A stretch of 64,000 bases of DNA from Bacteroidota bacterium (GTDB taxonomy: Bacteria > Bacteroidota > Bacteroidia > Chitinophagales > Chitinophagaceae): contig JBDLUU010000081.1 of NCBI GenBank assembly GCA_039805185.1, positions 11,766-75,765 of the forward strand, in the 5' to 3' direction. The notes below the pieces were generated by a model. It did not search any database. It worked only from the letters and a program-made list of their open reading frames with translations, and was not told the origin of the DNA. The translations under genes were made by a program, and so were the position numbers. This document shows, piece after piece, positions 41,191 to 48,423 of the stretch. The stretch's first letter is position 1, and the number at the start of each line of letters is the position of its first letter.

Positions 41191-42030
41191 TTACTTAAGT
41201 ATTCTCCTTATTCCATTGGCATTTTCAATCAATTCCTTTAAATAATCGTAGTTCTCTTTTTCCAGGCAAGACTTGAATTTCCTTAGCTGACTGATATGCT
41301 CATTCAGCACATCCAGCACATTGTCTCTGTTTTGCATGAAAATGGGCACCCACATATCAGCATTACTTTTCGCCAACCTTACCGTGCTTTCGAATCCGCC
41401 ACTCGCCAGCTCAAAAATGGTATCTTCCTCTCTTTCCTTTTCTAATACCGTATTAGCCAGTGCAAAAGAAGTGATGTGTGAAATATGGCTGATATAGGCA
41501 ACGTGCATATCATGCGCACCCGATTCCATATACACCAGATGCATCTGGAGTAAACCATAGATCTCCCGGACCATCCTCAGTGCATCATCATCAGAATCTT
41601 CTGCATTACATATTACCGTTGCTTTCTGAACAAATGCATTGGTTTCGGCTGCATCGGGTCCGCTGTTTTCGGTACCCCACATGGGGTGGGTTGCCACGAA
41701 CCGTCCTCTTTTAGGGTGCCGGGCTACGAGCTGGCATAATACCGACTTGGTTGACCCCACATCAATTACCACTTGCTCTTTTACCATATCAAGTACCTGG
41801 GGTAATAATTTTTCTATTGCATTGATAGGTGTTGCCAGAATAATCAGGTTAGCAGCTGCAACAGCTTCTTCCAGAGGCAGACAACGATCTGCGAGCCCAA
41901 GCTCTACCGCTCTGGCAGCGTGTACCGGATTGGATTCAACTCCAATCACTCTGGAAGCAAATCCCTTCGCCTTCAATACCAGCGACATGGATCCCCCGAT
42001 TAACCCTAACCCTATAATAGCTACAACCAT
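41191..42030 (-). CDS. tyrA: Prephenate dehydrogenase
   Basis: GLGLIGGS, DVGSTK, THPMWGTE, HDMHVAYISH. Confidence 0.93.
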   Translation of the reverse strand: MVVAIIGLGLIGGSMSLVLKAKGFASRVIGVESNPVHAARAVELGLADRCLPLEEAVAAANLIILATPINAIEKLLPQVLDMVKEQVVIDVGSTKSVLCQLVARHPKRGRFVATHPMWGTENSGPDAAETNAFVQKATVICNAEDSDDDALRMVREIYGLLQMHLVYMESGAHDMHVAYISHISHITSFALANTVLEKEREEDTIFELASGGFESTVRLAKSNADMWVPIFMQNRDNVLDVLNEHISQLRKFKSCLEKENYDYLKELIENANGIRRILK

Positions 42031-42033
42031 TGT

Positions 42034-43191
42034 TTATATATTATTGATTCTTTGAATTGCCTGATCAAACTTTTCGATTGATCCACACAAGCTTACCCGA
42101 ACAAAACGATTTCCTGCTGATCCGAATATTCCACCCGGAGTAATGAATACTCCTTTATTATAAAGCACTTTATCACTTAATTCATATCCGTCTTTCATTT
42201 CTTCAGGGATGCTGGCCCAGACAAACATTCCAGCCTGATCTTTACTGTAAGAACAAGCTAAATGATCCAGTAATTCAAAAACCTTTTTTCTTCTTTCTGC
42301 ATATATAGCATTGATTTCATCATACCATTCTTTACCCAGCGCCAATGCAGTTGCAGCTGCATATTGAACCGGAAGAAACATACCACTATCCATATTGCTT
42401 TTGAAAGTGAGCACTTCATTGATCCTTTCCGCTGCACCACATAACATACCAACTCTCCATCCCGCCATATTCTGGCTCTTGCTTAATGAATTCAACTCAA
42501 GAGCCGTTTCCATAGCACCGGGAACCTGTAAAATGCTGAGGGGCTGATCATTCAGGATAAAACTGTAAGGATTATCGTGACAAATCAGAATTTGATTTCG
42601 TTTTCCAAACGCAATGATTTCCTCAAATAGTTGATTTGTCGCTTGTTGACCAGTTGGCATATGCGGATAATTCACCCACATGATTTTGACCTTGCTTAAA
42701 TTCCTTTTTTCCAGTTCGGTAAAATCCGGAGCCCAATCATTGTTTTCTTTCAACTCGTAATACACAGGCGTTGCACCTGATAATTTAACTGCACTGGTAT
42801 ACGTAGGGTATCCAGGATTTGGCACAAGTGCTTCATCTCCTTCTCCCAGGTAAGTCATGCAGATATGCATGATTCCTTCTTTACTACCCAACAAGGGAAG
42901 TACTTCTGTATCCGGATTCAATACTACATTGTACCAGCTGCTGTACCAATTGGATATGGCATTTCTTAAAACGGGCAAACCTTTATAAGACTGATAGGCA
43001 TGTGAATCGGGCAACTGTGCTTTTAATTGCAAAGCTTCAATCACACTGGGATGCGGAGGCAAATCAGGACTCCCTATTCCCAGGTTAATAATATTTTTAC
43101 CTGCTTTATTCAACTGATCAATTTCTCTCAGTTTCTGAGAAAAATAATACTCGCCAATACCATTCAATCTTTTTGCAACTGTTCCTTTCAT
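42034..43191 (-). CDS. Class I/II PLP aminotransferase (aromatic-pathway associated)
   Basis: LGIGSPD, GSKEG, NYPHMPTG, DNPY, SLSKSQNMAGWRVG. Confidence 0.9.
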   Translation of the reverse strand: MKGTVAKRLNGIGEYYFSQKLREIDQLNKAGKNIINLGIGSPDLPPHPSVIEALQLKAQLPDSHAYQSYKGLPVLRNAISNWYSSWYNVVLNPDTEVLPLLGSKEGIMHICMTYLGEGDEALVPNPGYPTYTSAVKLSGATPVYYELKENNDWAPDFTELEKRNLSKVKIMWVNYPHMPTGQQATNQLFEEIIAFGKRNQILICHDNPYSFILNDQPLSILQVPGAMETALELNSLSKSQNMAGWRVGMLCGAAERINEVLTFKSNMDSGMFLPVQYAAATALALGKEWYDEINAIYAERRKKVFELLDHLACSYSKDQAGMFVWASIPEEMKDGYELSDKVLYNKGVFITPGGIFGSAGNRFVRVSLCGSIEKFDQAIQRINNI

Positions 43192-43204
43192 GATAGGGTT
43201 CCCT

Positions 43205-44113
43205 TTATCCTTTAATTAATTTACCTTTCTTGTATATGCCAAACACTTTTACGTTATTGGTATATTCCTTTATCTTCTGCAACATTTTTTCAAATTGTTT
43301 AATTTGATCAAACTCCATATCGGCATAAAAACCATATTTAAAATGGCTGCCTGGGATAGGCATACTTTGCAGCTTACTCAGGTTGATACCCGTAGAAGCT
43401 ACCTGTGACAAAACCTTAGACAATACTCCCCTTGTATGATTGGTCTGAAAATAAATAGAGGCTTTATTGGCATCATTAACCGGTAGCGCCTCCTTGGTTC
43501 TTTTCAAAATCAGGAATCGGGTAATATTGTTTTTTTGTGTTTGAATATCAGGTACCAGAATCTGAAGATCATTAATTTCTGCAGCCAGCTTACTGGCAAT
43601 GGCAGCCAAATGTTTACAATGATGTTGTTTAACATATTGGGCACTTAATGCGGTATCTTCTGTTTCAATCAATTTGAATGAATGCTGTTCCAGAAAATCC
43701 AGACACTGTAATAAAGCCATGGGATGACTGTGGACTTCTTTGATATCCGACAACTGTACGCCTTTATTGGCCAGCAAATTCTGACTGATAGACAAATACA
43801 CTTCTCCTACAATGGTCAGGTTTGCTTTCTGCAAAAGGGAGTAATTAGGCAGTATACTTCCCGCAATTGAATTCTCAATAGCCATAACAGCAGCATCAGA
43901 AACCTTACTATCCAATGCCATTTTAACCAGTTCTCTAAAAGAGGCACAGGGAATAACTGAAACCTTTTTACCAAAAAACTTCCTTGCCGCTACCTGATGA
44001 AAACTTCCCTCGTATCCCTGAATACATATCCCTATAGGCAAATCAGAAGATGCTATTTTTTTATTGGAAGACGACATTATATCTATGTGTTTTAAAATGA
44101 TTTTGGTTGGCAT
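43205..44113 (-). CDS. pheA: Prephenate dehydratase (start could be 44077)
   Basis: QGYEGSFH, AIENSIAG, HSHPMALLQC, NITRF, ACT domain INLSKLQSMP. Confidence 0.93.
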   Translation of the reverse strand: MPTKIILKHIDIMSSSNKKIASSDLPIGICIQGYEGSFHQVAARKFFGKKVSVIPCASFRELVKMALDSKVSDAAVMAIENSIAGSILPNYSLLQKANLTIVGEVYLSISQNLLANKGVQLSDIKEVHSHPMALLQCLDFLEQHSFKLIETEDTALSAQYVKQHHCKHLAAIASKLAAEINDLQILVPDIQTQKNNITRFLILKRTKEALPVNDANKASIYFQTNHTRGVLSKVLSQVASTGINLSKLQSMPIPGSHFKYGFYADMEFDQIKQFEKMLQKIKEYTNNVKVFGIYKKGKLIKG

Positions 44114-44345: not shown

Positions 44346-44380
44346 AAAAAATAAGCCCCCCCGTGGAAACGGAGCGGCTT
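44346..44380 (-). terminator. Intrinsic terminator for the small lipoprotein transcript
   Basis: AAGCC..CCGT-GGAA-ACGG..GGCTT hairpin with adjacent A-tract (U-tract on minus strand). Confidence 0.6.
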
Positions 44381-44472: not shown

Positions 44473-44652
44473 TTACTTCTTTGCAGTTGTGTCTACAGTT
44501 GCAGCAGCAGTGTCTACAGTTGCAGCAGCAGTGTCTACAGTTGCAGCAGCAGTGTCTACAGTTGCAGCAGTTGTGTCAGCAGCAGCTTCTTTGTTTTCTC
44601 CAGCGCAAGATGCGAATACACCTAAAGCCAAAACAAATAATAATTTTTTCAT
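44473..44652 (-). CDS. 59-aa lipoprotein with (TVDTAAA)n repeats
   Basis: MKKLLFVLALGVFASC lipobox (Cys16); mature AGENKEAAADTTAATVDTAAATVDTAAATVDTAAATVDTTAKK. Confidence 0.85.
   Translation of the reverse strand: MKKLLFVLALGVFASCAGENKEAAADTTAATVDTAAATVDTAAATVDTAAATVDTTAKK
44489..44572. repeat. 21-bp tandem repeat GTGTCTACAGTTGCAGCAGCA
   Basis: Three perfect copies (44489, 44510, 44531) plus a 19/21 copy (44552). Confidence 0.95.
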
Positions 44653-44684
44653 TTTTTTTCTTTTTAAGTTTGAATGATTACTGA

Positions 44685-44713
44685 TTAATACGCAGATGAA
44701 TAAAAGGTAACCC
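44685..44713 (-). promoter_or_regulatory. Putative ECF-type promoter GGGTTAC-N14-CGTATTAA toward the lipoprotein gene
   Basis: Identical boxes and spacing to the copy at 44756-44784 on the opposite strand. Confidence 0.7.
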
Positions 44714-44755
44714 GGCAAAATCCTTTTTTTCCAAAAAAATTTTTAGGCCTATTTT

Positions 44756-44784
44756 GGGTTACTTTTAAGTGACAAACGTATTAA
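44756..44784 (+). promoter_or_regulatory. Putative ECF-type autoregulatory promoter GGGTTAC-N14-CGTATTAA toward the sigma gene
   Basis: GGGTTAC 44756-62, 14-nt spacer, CGTATTAA 44777-84. Confidence 0.7.
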
Positions 44785-44795
44785 AGACACAGATA

Positions 44796-45362
44796 GTGAA
44801 AGGAGATACGAACGAACAAGCATTATTAAAGGGTCTGGCTCACAACGATTCAAAGGCTGTAGAAATCATATATAAAGAAAATTTTAATATGATTCAGGCT
44901 TTTATTCTGAATAACAATGGAAGCTATGACGAGGCAAGGGATATTTTTCAGGAAGCAATGATTGCTTTATATGAAAAGTCTCAGACCGATTCTTTTGTTT
45001 TGACTTGTCAGATTAAAACCTATCTCTACTCGGTTTGCCGGAGACTTTGGCTGAAGAGGCTCCAGCAGATGGGAAGATATACCGGATCAATAGATGGATT
45101 TGAAGAAACGGTAGCAGTTGAAGAAGATTTGGAAAACCATGAAAAAAGAAACGCAGAGTTTGCAATCATGGATCGGGCACTGAACAGTTTGGGAGAACCA
45201 TGCAAAAGTTTATTGCAGGGTTATTACCTAAAAAAAATGGACATGAATGCATTAGCTATAGAATTTGGTTACACCAATGCGGATAATGCAAAAAACCAGA
45301 AGTACAAATGCCTGATGCGCTTGAAGAAACTTTTCTTTTCACAATATAATATAGGTGAATAA
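44796..45362 (+). CDS. ECF sigma-70 factor
   Basis: sigma2 ARDIFQEAMIALYE, TYLYSVCRRLW; sigma4 ..NADNAKNQKYKCLMRLKK; GTG 44796 preferred because GTG 44769 lies inside the promoter motif. Confidence 0.92.
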   Translation: MKGDTNEQALLKGLAHNDSKAVEIIYKENFNMIQAFILNNNGSYDEARDIFQEAMIALYEKSQTDSFVLTCQIKTYLYSVCRRLWLKRLQQMGRYTGSIDGFEETVAVEEDLENHEKRNAEFAIMDRALNSLGEPCKSLLQGYYLKKMDMNALAIEFGYTNADNAKNQKYKCLMRLKKLFFSQYNIGE

Positions 45363-45403
45363 TTCTTTAACGAATAACACCCAGACTAAAGAACTGAATA
45401 TTG

Positions 45404-46510
45404 ATGGAAGATATTTTATTACTAGACGCAATTGAAAGATACCTCAGCGGTGAAATGAGTGCTGAAGAGCGCAACTATTTTGAGAATCTGAGAAAGACCA
45501 CACCTGAAATAGATCAGATGGTGGTTGAACACAATATGTTCCTTCACCAGATTGCGGACTATGCTGCCAATATTCAGATTAAGCAAACCTTACATGAAGT
45601 TCACCAGCATCTGCTGGACAGAGGAGACCTGAATGAAGGGGGCGCGTTGACTCCTAAAGGAAAAGTGATTCAATTCTGGAACAAGTATAAAAGAGTTACA
45701 GCGATTGCTGCTTCCGTAGGTGGCGTGATTGCTTTATTTATCAGTGGGCTGGCTATGTATTTTTCTACTTCAGTAAATGATCCTAAACTGGAACAGTTGG
45801 GTAAAGATCTGGAAGTGGTTAAGAAAAACCAGCAGGCTCAGGTGAATATCATTAATGAAGTAACATCCAAAATTCCGAGCAATGCAAGATTATTGAGCGG
45901 AGGCTCGGGCTTCTTGGTAGATCCCAAGGGATACATTGTTACCAATGCCCATATTCTGAAAGGTACAGGAGCCATTGTTGTAAACAGCAAAGGCGCTGAA
46001 TTCAAATCTTCTATTGTATTAATTGACCACGATAAGGATCTGGCCATTTTAAAAATTAACGACGAAGAATATGAGTCGGTAAAAACCATTCCTTACAGTA
46101 TTCAGAAAATCAATTCATCCTTAGGCGAAGAAATATTTACATTAGGTTACCCCAGAAATGAAATCGTTTATGGAATGGGGTATTTAAGCGCTAAAACCGG
46201 ATTTAACGGCGATTCGCTTTCGTACCAGATTCAAATCAGCGCAAACCCTGGCAACTCCGGAGGTCCTGTTTTCAACAAGAACGGAGAAGTAATAGGGGTG
46301 TTAAGCACCAGACAAGCCCAGGCAGATGGGGTTGCTTTCGCCGTAAAATCAAAGAATATTCATTCGATTATAGAAGACCTGAAAAAATCAGATACAGCTT
46401 TCAGAAAAGTTAAACTGCCAGCAAAATCAACACTAAAAGGTGTTGAAAGAAAAACACAGATTACCAAAGTGGAAGATTGTGTATTCTTTGTAAAAGCTTA
46501 TACAAAATAG
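45404..46510 (+). CDS. Membrane-anchored S1 (trypsin-like) serine protease with anti-sigma-like N-terminus
   Basis: IERYLSGEMSAEER N-terminal helices, one TM (IAASVGGVIALFISGLAMYF), triad TNAHI / DLAIL / GNSGGP; no PDZ seen. Confidence 0.85.
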   Translation: MEDILLLDAIERYLSGEMSAEERNYFENLRKTTPEIDQMVVEHNMFLHQIADYAANIQIKQTLHEVHQHLLDRGDLNEGGALTPKGKVIQFWNKYKRVTAIAASVGGVIALFISGLAMYFSTSVNDPKLEQLGKDLEVVKKNQQAQVNIINEVTSKIPSNARLLSGGSGFLVDPKGYIVTNAHILKGTGAIVVNSKGAEFKSSIVLIDHDKDLAILKINDEEYESVKTIPYSIQKINSSLGEEIFTLGYPRNEIVYGMGYLSAKTGFNGDSLSYQIQISANPGNSGGPVFNKNGEVIGVLSTRQAQADGVAFAVKSKNIHSIIEDLKKSDTAFRKVKLPAKSTLKGVERKTQITKVEDCVFFVKAYTK

Positions 46511-46581: not shown

Positions 46582-47481
46582 TTACTTCCAAAGAGACGCC
46601 GGATATACTTTAGCATTAACTAAAGCATTGATAGCTGCCTGCACACCGGGAGCATCTTCTTTATAAGTTACCCCAAACCATTGCGCAGAGGTTGGAAGTA
46701 CTTTTAAAACGCCTTTACCCGATTGAATAAATTCATTGGCTGCATATGGTATAAAGAATTCAGACTTTAATTCCTGTCCCTTTGCTTGTAGAAACTCTGT
46801 AAACATATCTTCACACATATCAATAAAGTCGGCTGAGAAACAGAAGTAGTTCATGCTCACGAGACTGTTTCCAGGCAATGGGTGCTTCCCTGTTTCATCC
46901 TCATATACAATCTCTCCATTCTCACGGTAGATTTTTGTTCTTTCATTAATGGCAGTGAGGTTATTGTTGGCATCAGCCGTGCAAACACCGCGACTAACAC
47001 TTCCATTTTCACTTAGTGTTTTCTGCAACTCATACCCTACTAATGCAAAAGTGGATGCATTGCACAGTGAATTTAAAAATTCAACAGCCTTATCAAAAGC
47101 ATCTCTTCCATAATAATCATCCGCGTTAATTACAGCAAAAGGCTCATTTACCTTTCCCTTGCAACAAAGCACCGCATGTGCCGTACCCCAAGGCTTTGCC
47201 CTGTCGGCAGGAATGGGATAGCCTTTGGTATATGCTTCCAGATGCTGGTAAACATAGTCAGTCGCAATTTTCCCTGCCAGTTTGGGTTCAAAAATGGCCT
47301 TGAATTGTTCAGAGAACTCTTCACGAATAATAAATACAACTTTACCGAATCCGGCTTTGATGGCATCATAAATAGAGTAATCCATAATTGTTTCACCATC
47401 CGGACCAAATGATTGTATTTGTTTCATACTTCCGTAGCGACTGGCCATTCCGGCAGCAAGTATAACAAGGGTAGGTTTCAT
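46582..47481 (-). CDS. Sugar-phosphate nucleotidyltransferase (MurU-like candidate)
   Basis: ILAAGMASRYG, PWGTAHAV, INADDYYG, WFGVTY. Confidence 0.85.
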   Translation of the reverse strand: MKPTLVILAAGMASRYGSMKQIQSFGPDGETIMDYSIYDAIKAGFGKVVFIIREEFSEQFKAIFEPKLAGKIATDYVYQHLEAYTKGYPIPADRAKPWGTAHAVLCCKGKVNEPFAVINADDYYGRDAFDKAVEFLNSLCNASTFALVGYELQKTLSENGSVSRGVCTADANNNLTAINERTKIYRENGEIVYEDETGKHPLPGNSLVSMNYFCFSADFIDMCEDMFTEFLQAKGQELKSEFFIPYAANEFIQSGKGVLKVLPTSAQWFGVTYKEDAPGVQAAINALVNAKVYPASLWK

Positions 47482-47538
47482 AGCTTAATTTTACATGCCA
47501 AAGTTAAATCATTTAACATTGCAACAATTCATCATAAT

Positions 47539-48423
47539 TTGATACCTGATATAAATCATATAAGACTGGATAGATGGCCTATACCGAAGGGTAGTTCCAT
47601 CCAATTGTCTGTTTTAAGAACCGACCTGATTCATCCGGTTATCAGTGGCAATAAATGGTTTAAACTGCAATATTATCTGGCGGATGCAATCAATCAGGGA
47701 TTTAAAACGGTTGCCAGTTTTGGAGGAGCTTACTCCAACCATATTGTTGCTTTGGCAGCAGCGGCAAAGCTGAGTGGTCTGAAATCAATTGGAATCATTA
47801 GAGGCAAAGAAGACACTTCGCCTACATTACAGGAGGCCCAACAATGGGATATGAAAATCATTCCTATATCCCGGGAAGCCTACAGAAACAAAAAAAATAT
47901 TATTGGGAGTATTCCTGATCATGAAAATATTTACTGGGTGGATGAAGGAGGTTATGGCGTCCTTGGAGCTAAAGGGGCCTCAGCCATTTTATCCGTAACC
48001 GATTGCAGTAAATTCAGTCATATTCTTTGTGCATGCGGAACAGGCACAATGATAGCCGGACTTATTCTGGGATCCAATGAATGTCAGAAGATTATTGGAA
48101 TAAGTGTTCTAAAAAACAACAGACAACTGGAAGAAAACATAGCGGGATTATTGCCTGAAACCATGCACAATCGCATAGCTTGTATTCATGATTATCATTT
48201 TGGCGGTTATGCCAAACATCCAGTCCAGCTCATTGATTATATGAATGATGCTTATATGCGAACCCAAATCCCTACAGACATTGTGTATACTTCCAAACTA
48301 TTCTATGCCGCAGAAGATTTGATAAAAGTGGGGTATTTCGGGCATAATGCCAACATACTAATCATACATAGCGGCGGATTACAGGGGAACAGAAGCTTAA
48401 CTAAAAACACTCTTTGCTTCTAG
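47539..48423 (+). CDS. D-cysteine desulfhydrase / ACC deaminase family PLP enzyme (start uncertain)
   Basis: SGNKWFKL, FGGAYSNH, ACGTGTMIAG, FGGYAK, HSGGLQG; TTG 47539 chosen to avoid overlap with the divergent gene. Confidence 0.85.
   Translation: MIPDINHIRLDRWPIPKGSSIQLSVLRTDLIHPVISGNKWFKLQYYLADAINQGFKTVASFGGAYSNHIVALAAAAKLSGLKSIGIIRGKEDTSPTLQEAQQWDMKIIPISREAYRNKKNIIGSIPDHENIYWVDEGGYGVLGAKGASAILSVTDCSKFSHILCACGTGTMIAGLILGSNECQKIIGISVLKNNRQLEENIAGLLPETMHNRIACIHDYHFGGYAKHPVQLIDYMNDAYMRTQIPTDIVYTSKLFYAAEDLIKVGYFGHNANILIIHSGGLQGNRSLTKNTLCF

Follow-up and report, generated by a model that had tools for sequence, protein, structure and literature searches.

Between a gene for an ECF sigma factor and a divergently oriented gene for a small lipoprotein, the same pair of short boxes occurs twice, once on each strand. 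What are these two copies, and which protein reads them? An initial annotation of the locus had taken them for the recognition sequence of the adjacent sigma factor. If so, the arrangement should be recognizable at the level of sequence, in the relatives of this sigma factor, in the transcripts of the region and in the proteins that the flanking genes encode.

Two divergent copies of a bipartite motif

The window (the whole 64-kb stretch of DNA that was analysed) comes from a relative of Sediminibacterium in the Chitinophagaceae. In it, the plus-strand copy consists of GGGTTAC (44756–44762), a 14-nt spacer (TTTTAAGTGACAAA) and CGTATTAA (44777–44784). The minus-strand copy has GGGTTAC at 44713–44707, a 14-nt spacer of its own (CTTTTATTCATCTG) and CGTATTAA at 44692–44685. 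Direct reading thus confirmed the earlier description of two back-to-back copies that have identical boxes and equal spacing, differ in their spacers and are separated by 42 bp with A/T tracts. The gap (44714–44755) is shared by the two first boxes and contains, in this order, the runs T7 (44724–44730), CC, A7 (44733–44739) and T5 (44740–44744). Also common to both copies is a T-tract after the first box (GGGTTAC-T-TTT and GGGTTAC-C-TTTT). Taken together, the copies form a 29-nt inverted repeat with 72% complementarity.

The exact pattern GGGTTAC-N14-CGTATTAA has two matches in the 64-kb window, compared with 0.00 expected from 100 dinucleotide-preserving shuffles. Tolerating up to three mismatches still returned just these two sites. 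With a position-weight matrix built from orthologous sites, the two copies scored 34.3 and 33.9, and the next-best site in the window reached 7.6, which is within the range of the shuffles. It had been noted by eye that the window holds no other copy, and all three scans bear this out.

The gene on the plus strand (44796–45362) encodes a protein of 188 aa that is an ECF (group 4) sigma factor according to TIGR02937 (59.6 bits against a cut-off of 42.9); its match to Pfam Sigma70_r2 is weak (21.8 bits against 24). The gene on the minus strand (44473–44652, starting with ATG 44652) encodes a lipoprotein of 59 aa (MKKLLFVLALGVFASC...) that resembles PG1828, and is followed by a terminator-like hairpin detected in a consensus scan (44355–44374, minus strand). 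We consider it highly probable that the two motifs are divergent ECF-type promoters, one serving the sigma factor's own operon and the other the small lipoprotein gene. Based on conservation and on an ECF-promoter-like layout, the predicted -35 element of the sigma-operon promoter is GGGTTAC with the T-tract TTTT (44756–44766, plus strand). Its -10 element would be (C)GTATTAA at 44777–44784 (plus strand), with the conserved part GTATTAA at 44778–44784. The lipoprotein promoter would correspondingly have its -35 element, GGGTTAC-C-TTTT, at 44702–44713 and its -10 element, (C)GTATTAA, at 44685–44692 (both on the minus strand), the latter being conserved like the plus copy. As judged from sequence, the T7, A7 and T5 runs between the two promoters may represent UP-like elements or bent DNA.

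Other promoter types were also considered for this region. The Bacteroidetes sigma-A consensus has TTTG at -33 and TAnnTTTG at -7 (PMC9723704). A promoter of this kind was rejected, since TAnnTTTG is absent at the right distance before either gene, and no promoter of the sigma-70 type fits the region. An Rfam search of the intergenic region gave no meaningful match, and a full-text literature search combining the motif string with sigma factors returned nothing relevant. The main text of the ECF classification by Casas-Pastor et al. contains no matching group description.

Conservation of the boxes, their spacing and the gene order

We compared the window with 80 loci from species-representative genomes of Chitinophagaceae whose sigma factors are 74–97% identical to that of the window (81 loci in total, hereafter the close set). 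It turned out that GGTTAC-N15/16-GTAT[TA]AA lies just upstream of the sigma ORF in every one of them. The distance from GGTTAC to GTAT is 16 nt in 69 loci and 15 nt in 12. From the end of the second box to a conserved GTG or TTG codon there are 9–12 nt in 79 of the 81 loci and 14–15 nt in the other two.

Column conservation, calculated over 78 Chitinophagaceae loci, is concentrated in the boxes. On the sigma side, the -35 sequence TTGGGTTACTTTT is near-invariant and the conserved columns read TTGGGTTACTTTTa ... GTATTAAa; on the lipoprotein side they read gGGTTACCTTTTat ... gGTATtAA. The spacer sequence is variable on both sides. Within the close set, the spacers therefore keep their length and not their sequence, and the flanks vary around invariant boxes. 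The base preceding GTAT is not conserved either: on the sigma side A, C, T and G occur in 35, 20, 18 and 5 of the 78 loci, and on the lipoprotein side G is present in 49 of 78. The CGT that had initially been pointed out in the -10 element is therefore a property of the strain, not part of the motif. This also affects the proposal to use the motif as a search pattern for the regulon. The idea is usable, but the pattern as first written is too strict, since the preceding C varies and N14 alternates with N15; on the sequences compared here, the usable predicted pattern is GGGTTAC-N15/16-GTAT[TA]AA.

The second, inverted copy is almost as constant. It lies no more than 200 nt away in 78 of the close loci; the distance between the GGTTAC sequences of the divergent copies is 43–47 nt, and exactly 45 nt in 48 of 79 loci. 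The order T-run, A-run, T-run between the copies is kept across loci. A lipoprotein gene with its own box is present in 80 of the 81 loci, with 24–40 nt (mostly 32–36) between the box and the ATG. Strict matches are confined almost entirely to these positions: of the 162 found in 1.27 Mb of flanks, 159 fall at the two promoter positions, and the flanks within 10 kb on either side hold no further sites except copies at extra lipoprotein paralogues. Two exceptional arrangements were encountered. In two loci (L068 and L076) the lipoprotein gene is located about 380 nt further off, and the box is displaced along with the gene. In the type strain S. salmoneum NBRC 103935 (L001), both the lipoprotein gene and its box are missing from the locus and the sigma-side copy is present; the point at which its synteny with the window is lost, 44724, falls within the A/T tract that separates the promoters. 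A separate observation concerns four contigs of metagenome-assembled genomes (L003, L009, L011 and L023) that carry a Chitinophagaceae locus and are labelled Synechococcus sp., Sphingobacterium thalpophilum or Caulobacter sp.; this is probably the result of mis-binning or mislabelling.

How far does the motif extend beyond Chitinophagaceae? A search of 1.84 billion cluster representatives returned 70 clusters of this sigma family at E≤1e-30. Near-invariant in the family are region 4 (GYTNADNAKNQKYKCLxRLKK) and motifs of region 2. At intermediate distance (sigma factors 52–63% identical), boxes and gene order are kept in 7 of 7 loci. The distant set comprised 80 metagenomic loci with sigma factors 40–54% identical to the query representative P0245, of which 77 had DNA upstream of the gene. 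In all 77, the sigma ORF is directly preceded by the motif, with a spacing of 15–16 nt. Variants are rare (GGGTGAC, found once, GATATTAA, CGAATTAA and GTATGAA), and in these lineages the T-tract after GGGTTAC is sometimes missing from the sigma side. An inverted copy is located 20–43 nt before the ATG of a lipoprotein of 53–83 aa in 71 of the 80 distant loci, and a serine-protease active-site motif is encoded downstream of the sigma gene in 50 of the 53 loci that extend far enough. Exact-sequence look-ups made it possible to name some of the distant loci, which come from Mucilaginibacter, Daejeonella, Paraflavitalea, Chryseolinea and Hymenobacter. Thus, the module covers the orders Sphingobacteriales, Chitinophagales and Cytophagales.

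Loci of the Mucilaginibacter type display a further elaboration. They encode two or three tandem lipoprotein paralogues upstream of the sigma gene (L091, L094–L097, L099, L103, L104, L107, L108, L118 and L147), each of which has its own perfect copy of GGGTTACCTTTT-N11-GTATTAA 24–37 nt before the ATG.

Start codon, transcription start and transcripts

The plus-strand motif also bears on the question of where the sigma gene begins. The initial annotation had preferred GTG 44796 over GTG 44769, and this choice is borne out by several lines of evidence. GTG or TTG occupies the position equivalent to 44796 in all 81 close loci, and 47 of them have no in-frame start further upstream. Downstream of GTG 44796 variability is highest at third codon positions, which is typical of coding sequence, and database homologues of the sigma factor are mostly 188 aa long. 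RNA contigs over the gene, described below, agree with this start as well. GTG 44769 was rejected: it falls within the promoter spacer, lacks conservation and has no RNA coverage.

Distances from the end of the box to the first usable in-frame start are bimodal in the distant set: 2–4 nt in 23 loci and 10–14 nt in 44. In the first class, which includes L091, that start is usually the sole one in frame. In Mucilaginibacter, the protein translated from it is exactly the public-database protein. L083 and L084 likewise have a start codon 2–4 nt past the box, and in L083 the usual GTG position is occupied by GCA and the GTG is replaced by an ATG 2 nt after the box. A start codon only 2–4 nt past the box implies that the sigma mRNA is leaderless and that transcription starts at or before 3 to 5 nt past the box end. 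Judging from these start codons, the sigma mRNA would be leaderless in about a third of the distant lineages.

Moving the same geometry (box end +3 to +5) to the window places the predicted transcription start of the sigma operon at 44787–44789 (plus strand), with a leader of 7–9 nt. In other words, transcription would begin some 3–5 nt past GTATTAA, and the leader of the window's sigma mRNA would be only about 8 nt long. A start at this position puts the G of GTAT at approximately -9 to -11, which, by our own estimate, is the usual position of an ECF -10 element. With the geometry of the plus copy applied to the minus copy, the lipoprotein gene is predicted to be transcribed from 44680–44682 (minus strand), with a leader of about 28–30 nt. 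For comparison, leaderless transcripts make up about 5.5% of the mRNAs of Flavobacterium psychrophilum, and the median leader is 24 nt (PMC9723704).

We then compared these predictions with RNA data, which consisted of assembled metatranscriptome contigs, not reads, from nine runs. Where contigs cover the sigma gene, their ends lie at 44802 (X25, X26, X27, X34 and X36), 44806 (X30) and 44809 (X33), and adapter-joined or contig ends were found at 44810–44811 (X29, X37 and X25). The ends therefore lie 13–24 nt downstream of the predicted transcription start. We attribute those at 44802–44811 to a probable loss of 5′-ends during library preparation. Five independent runs coincide exactly in the end at 44802, which falls 6 nt into the ORF and about 14 nt past the predicted start.

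No RNA contig covers 44704–44791 (or 44769–44801) in the nine runs; one run labelled 'METAGENOMIC RNA-Seq' spans the intergenic region. As a control, DNA contigs are unbroken over 44541–45500 in four DNA runs. Since DNA contigs pass straight through, the boundary in the RNA is not an assembly artefact. Moreover, an exact RNA contig of 628 nt (44802–45429) crosses the junction between the sigma gene and the protease-domain gene that follows it, which supports the view that the two form an operon.

On the lipoprotein side, an adapter-bounded RNA contig of a close relative reaches 44661. The other RNA contigs over this gene break in its 21-nt repeats or come from other species. In the metatranscriptomes, word depth is in the hundreds for the lipoprotein gene and about 10 for the sigma gene, the former value being inflated by the repeats and by cross-species k-mers. 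Both DNA and RNA short-read assemblies break at the 21-nt repeats.

Proteins of the module and the reader of the motif

The gene directly after the sigma gene (45404–46510, plus strand) encodes a membrane protein, and such a gene occupies this place in 78 of 80 loci. Its homologues have 368 aa and are publicly named only 'S1C family serine protease'; those of Sediminibacterium sp. TEGAF015 and sp. C3 are 97% identical. Their length indicates that translation begins at ATG 45404 and not at TTG 45401, as given in the ORF list. The protein has a cytoplasmic N-terminus of three helices, a single TM helix and a periplasmic S1C (HtrA/DegS-like) domain. The latter matches Pfam Trypsin_2 (8.6e-24); its His, Asp and Ser columns are near-invariant among the homologues, and the catalytic triad is intact, with the serine in GNSGGP. 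With respect to DegS/HtrA membership, the triad and the S1C domain are present, no PDZ domain was detected in the protein, and all scores against the HtrA/DegS NCBIfam models are far below the cut-offs.

Could this protein be the anti-sigma factor? Searches of its N-terminus against Pfam, NCBIfam and a PDB sequence profile returned no anti-sigma family. The AF2 model of the N-terminal region (pLDDT 70) contains the three helices and the TM helix, and the top Foldseek matches of this model are the anti-sigma factors RslA (3hug) and RsiW (5wuq), at non-significant E-values of 1–3. Considering co-occurrence, co-transcription, the conserved helical N-terminus and these non-significant fold matches, we regard the protease-domain protein as a candidate anti-sigma factor.

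The lipoprotein of the window matches the NCBIfam model PG1828_fam_lipo (NF050142) over residues 1–57 of its 59 with 42.3–42.5 bits (E 9.5e-11), below the cut-off of 50. Among orthologues, 112 of 124 match this model at E≤0.001 (70 of 77 close and 42 of 47 distant ones); the best E-values are 8.9e-12 and 2.3e-12, and all matches stay below the 50-bit cut-off. By sequence similarity, then, the lipoprotein appears to be a sub-threshold relative of the PG1828 family. Four 21-nt tandem repeats (44483–44587, minus strand) encode heptads of the form (A/T)ATVDTA; in orthologues, repeats centred on D[ST] persist but differ in number and sequence.

These components suggest a simple regulatory circuit. 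The cytoplasmic N-terminus of the protease-domain protein probably sequesters the sigma factor, and its periplasmic part is the S1C protease. Once freed from the membrane protein, the sigma factor would direct RNA polymerase to both promoters. The outcome would be positive autoregulation of the operon together with induction of the lipoprotein, presumably an outer-membrane one, or of up to three lipoproteins in loci with paralogues.

The assignment of the motif to the adjacent sigma factor, as initially annotated, is supported by the boxes upstream of the sigma ORF in all 81 close loci and all 77 distant ones with upstream DNA, by a lipoprotein copy that travels with its gene and by RNA that starts downstream. 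We infer from this pattern that the adjacent sigma factor itself reads the motif. The boxes could also be genuine promoters read by a different sigma factor, either an ECF paralogue or a constitutive alternative sigma, with the adjacent sigma gene as one of the targets. ECF sigmas are numerous in Bacteroidota (PMC7826278), and overlap in what different ECF sigmas recognize is documented (PMC5758882). Moreover, high lipoprotein RNA is unexpected if its promoter depends only on a sequestered sigma, and a constitutively active reader would suit the seemingly high expression of this gene (depth in the hundreds compared with about 10). However, internal repeats and k-mers common to several species raise that depth artificially. 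In addition, the sigma family's own gene is immediately preceded by the motif in all 158 loci that include its upstream DNA, just as autoregulation predicts, and the DNA-recognition regions of the sigma factor are as invariant as the boxes. We therefore find a different reader unlikely. The boxes are without change across the family, and a comparison of sigma and box co-variation is therefore powerless.

Even less probable, in our assessment, is that the inverted pair is an operator through which a repressor or activator controls both divergent genes. This was the case that the initial annotation had named as its refutation, and the copies do form a 29-nt inverted repeat. Yet each copy is asymmetric, being made of two different boxes, and always points towards its gene, with the start codon a fixed distance away. 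Single copies also occur (the sigma-side one in S. salmoneum), in L068 and L076 a copy is displaced by about 380 nt, and paralogous lipoprotein genes are preceded by two or three tandem copies on the same strand; a palindromic operator would not be expected to behave in this way. The spacers keep length and not sequence, like promoter spacers, and RNA starts right after the plus copy. As for chance, or a functionless remnant of a repeat or mobile element, nothing beyond the A+T-rich context speaks for it. With 0.00 exact matches expected, and with boxes that three orders have in common amid diverging intergenic sequence, this explanation is refuted by conservation and its probability is negligible. 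We conclude that the locus has a well-conserved but ordinary regulatory site, which does not overturn the current understanding of ECF regulation. The autoregulatory ECF promoter pair belongs to an uncharacterised, very widely conserved module of sigma factor, protease fusion and lipoprotein.

How does this module compare with known systems? In E. coli, the autoregulated ECF factor sigma-E is co-transcribed with a single-pass membrane protein, RseA, and an HtrA-family (S1C) periplasmic protease, DegS, belongs to the signalling set. The module described here likewise pairs an ECF sigma factor with a co-transcribed single-pass membrane protein and has an S1C protease in the set. Unlike in E. coli, protease domain and putative anti-sigma factor are parts of one 368-aa polypeptide, which lacks PDZ, and the putative local regulon consists of one to three tiny lipoproteins. 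At the level of DNA, the closest parallel comes from B. subtilis, where ECF promoters read tGAAACnTTTt ... CGTA and the -35-proximal T-tract is functional (PMC5758882). As at the sigma-W and sigma-V promoters, there are two short boxes about 16 nt apart, directly upstream of an operon for the sigma factor and its anti-sigma factor, here a candidate (positive feedback); the -35 box ends in AC followed by one base and a T-tract, and the -10 box contains GTA. The differences are that GGGTTAC has TAC and not the canonical AAC, that GTATTAA is preceded by an unconserved base in place of the C of CGT, that the spacing is 1–2 nt shorter, that the host belongs to Bacteroidota and that some distant lineages lack the T-tract on the sigma side. 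The boxes thus resemble the canonical ECF type without being identical to it.

Within Bacteroidota, the EcfO-Reo and Das1-Dma1 pairs of Bacteroides (ECF21) control NigD lipoproteins, and their anti-sigma factors Reo and Dma span both membranes and have a C-terminal outer-membrane beta-barrel (PMC13114119, PMC10927553). The common points are a Bacteroidota ECF sigma/anti-sigma pair, with the anti-sigma being a candidate in our case, and lipoprotein targets specific to Bacteroidota. Membership in the EcfO-Reo/Das-Dma group was rejected, as the partner here is a 368-aa protein that combines a single TM helix with a Trypsin_2 domain, and the predicted target, 59 aa long, is not NigD. In P. gingivalis, the lipoprotein PG1828 adjoins the ECF sigma factor PG1827 (SigH), and the likeness to the window consists in a PG1828-model match below the cut-off. 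A small lipoprotein of this type is a TLR2 ligand in P. gingivalis.

A broader reading, which we put forward tentatively and consider possible rather than probable, is that the sigma factor, its protease-fused partner and one or more PG1828-like lipoproteins constitute an ancient envelope-signalling module found across several Bacteroidota orders. The anti-sigma factor would carry its own DegS-like site-1 protease, the two-protein DegS/RseA relay being collapsed into one polypeptide, and the output would be an abundant small surface lipoprotein. The promoter GGGTTAC-N15/16-GTATTAA would have been invariant since the split of Chitinophagales, Sphingobacteriales and Cytophagales, and the sigma mRNA would have switched repeatedly between leaderless and short-leader forms.

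The analysis provides a testable promoter consensus and a minimal predicted regulon (the sigma factor's own operon plus one to three lipoproteins) for an uncharacterised ECF sigma family found in Bacteroidota that are common in freshwater, soil and wastewater. The results also correct the start codons that a mechanical ORF list had given for the sigma and partner genes, and would flag hundreds of proteins named 'S1C family serine protease' as probable anti-sigma factors. Leaderless and short-leader versions of the same promoter form a natural series that would be useful for studying translation initiation; to our knowledge, Bacteroidota are a phylum without Shine–Dalgarno sequences. The invariant promoter and its sigma factor could also serve as an orthogonal expression part for Bacteroidota.

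The neighbourhood of the module is itself syntenic across Chitinophagaceae (window 41191–44113 and 46582–48423; L085–L089). Genes for prephenate dehydrogenase, an aminotransferase, prephenate dehydratase and a DEAD-box helicase are located upstream, and those for an NTP-transferase and a PALP enzyme downstream. The chromosomal position of the sigma module is therefore stable.
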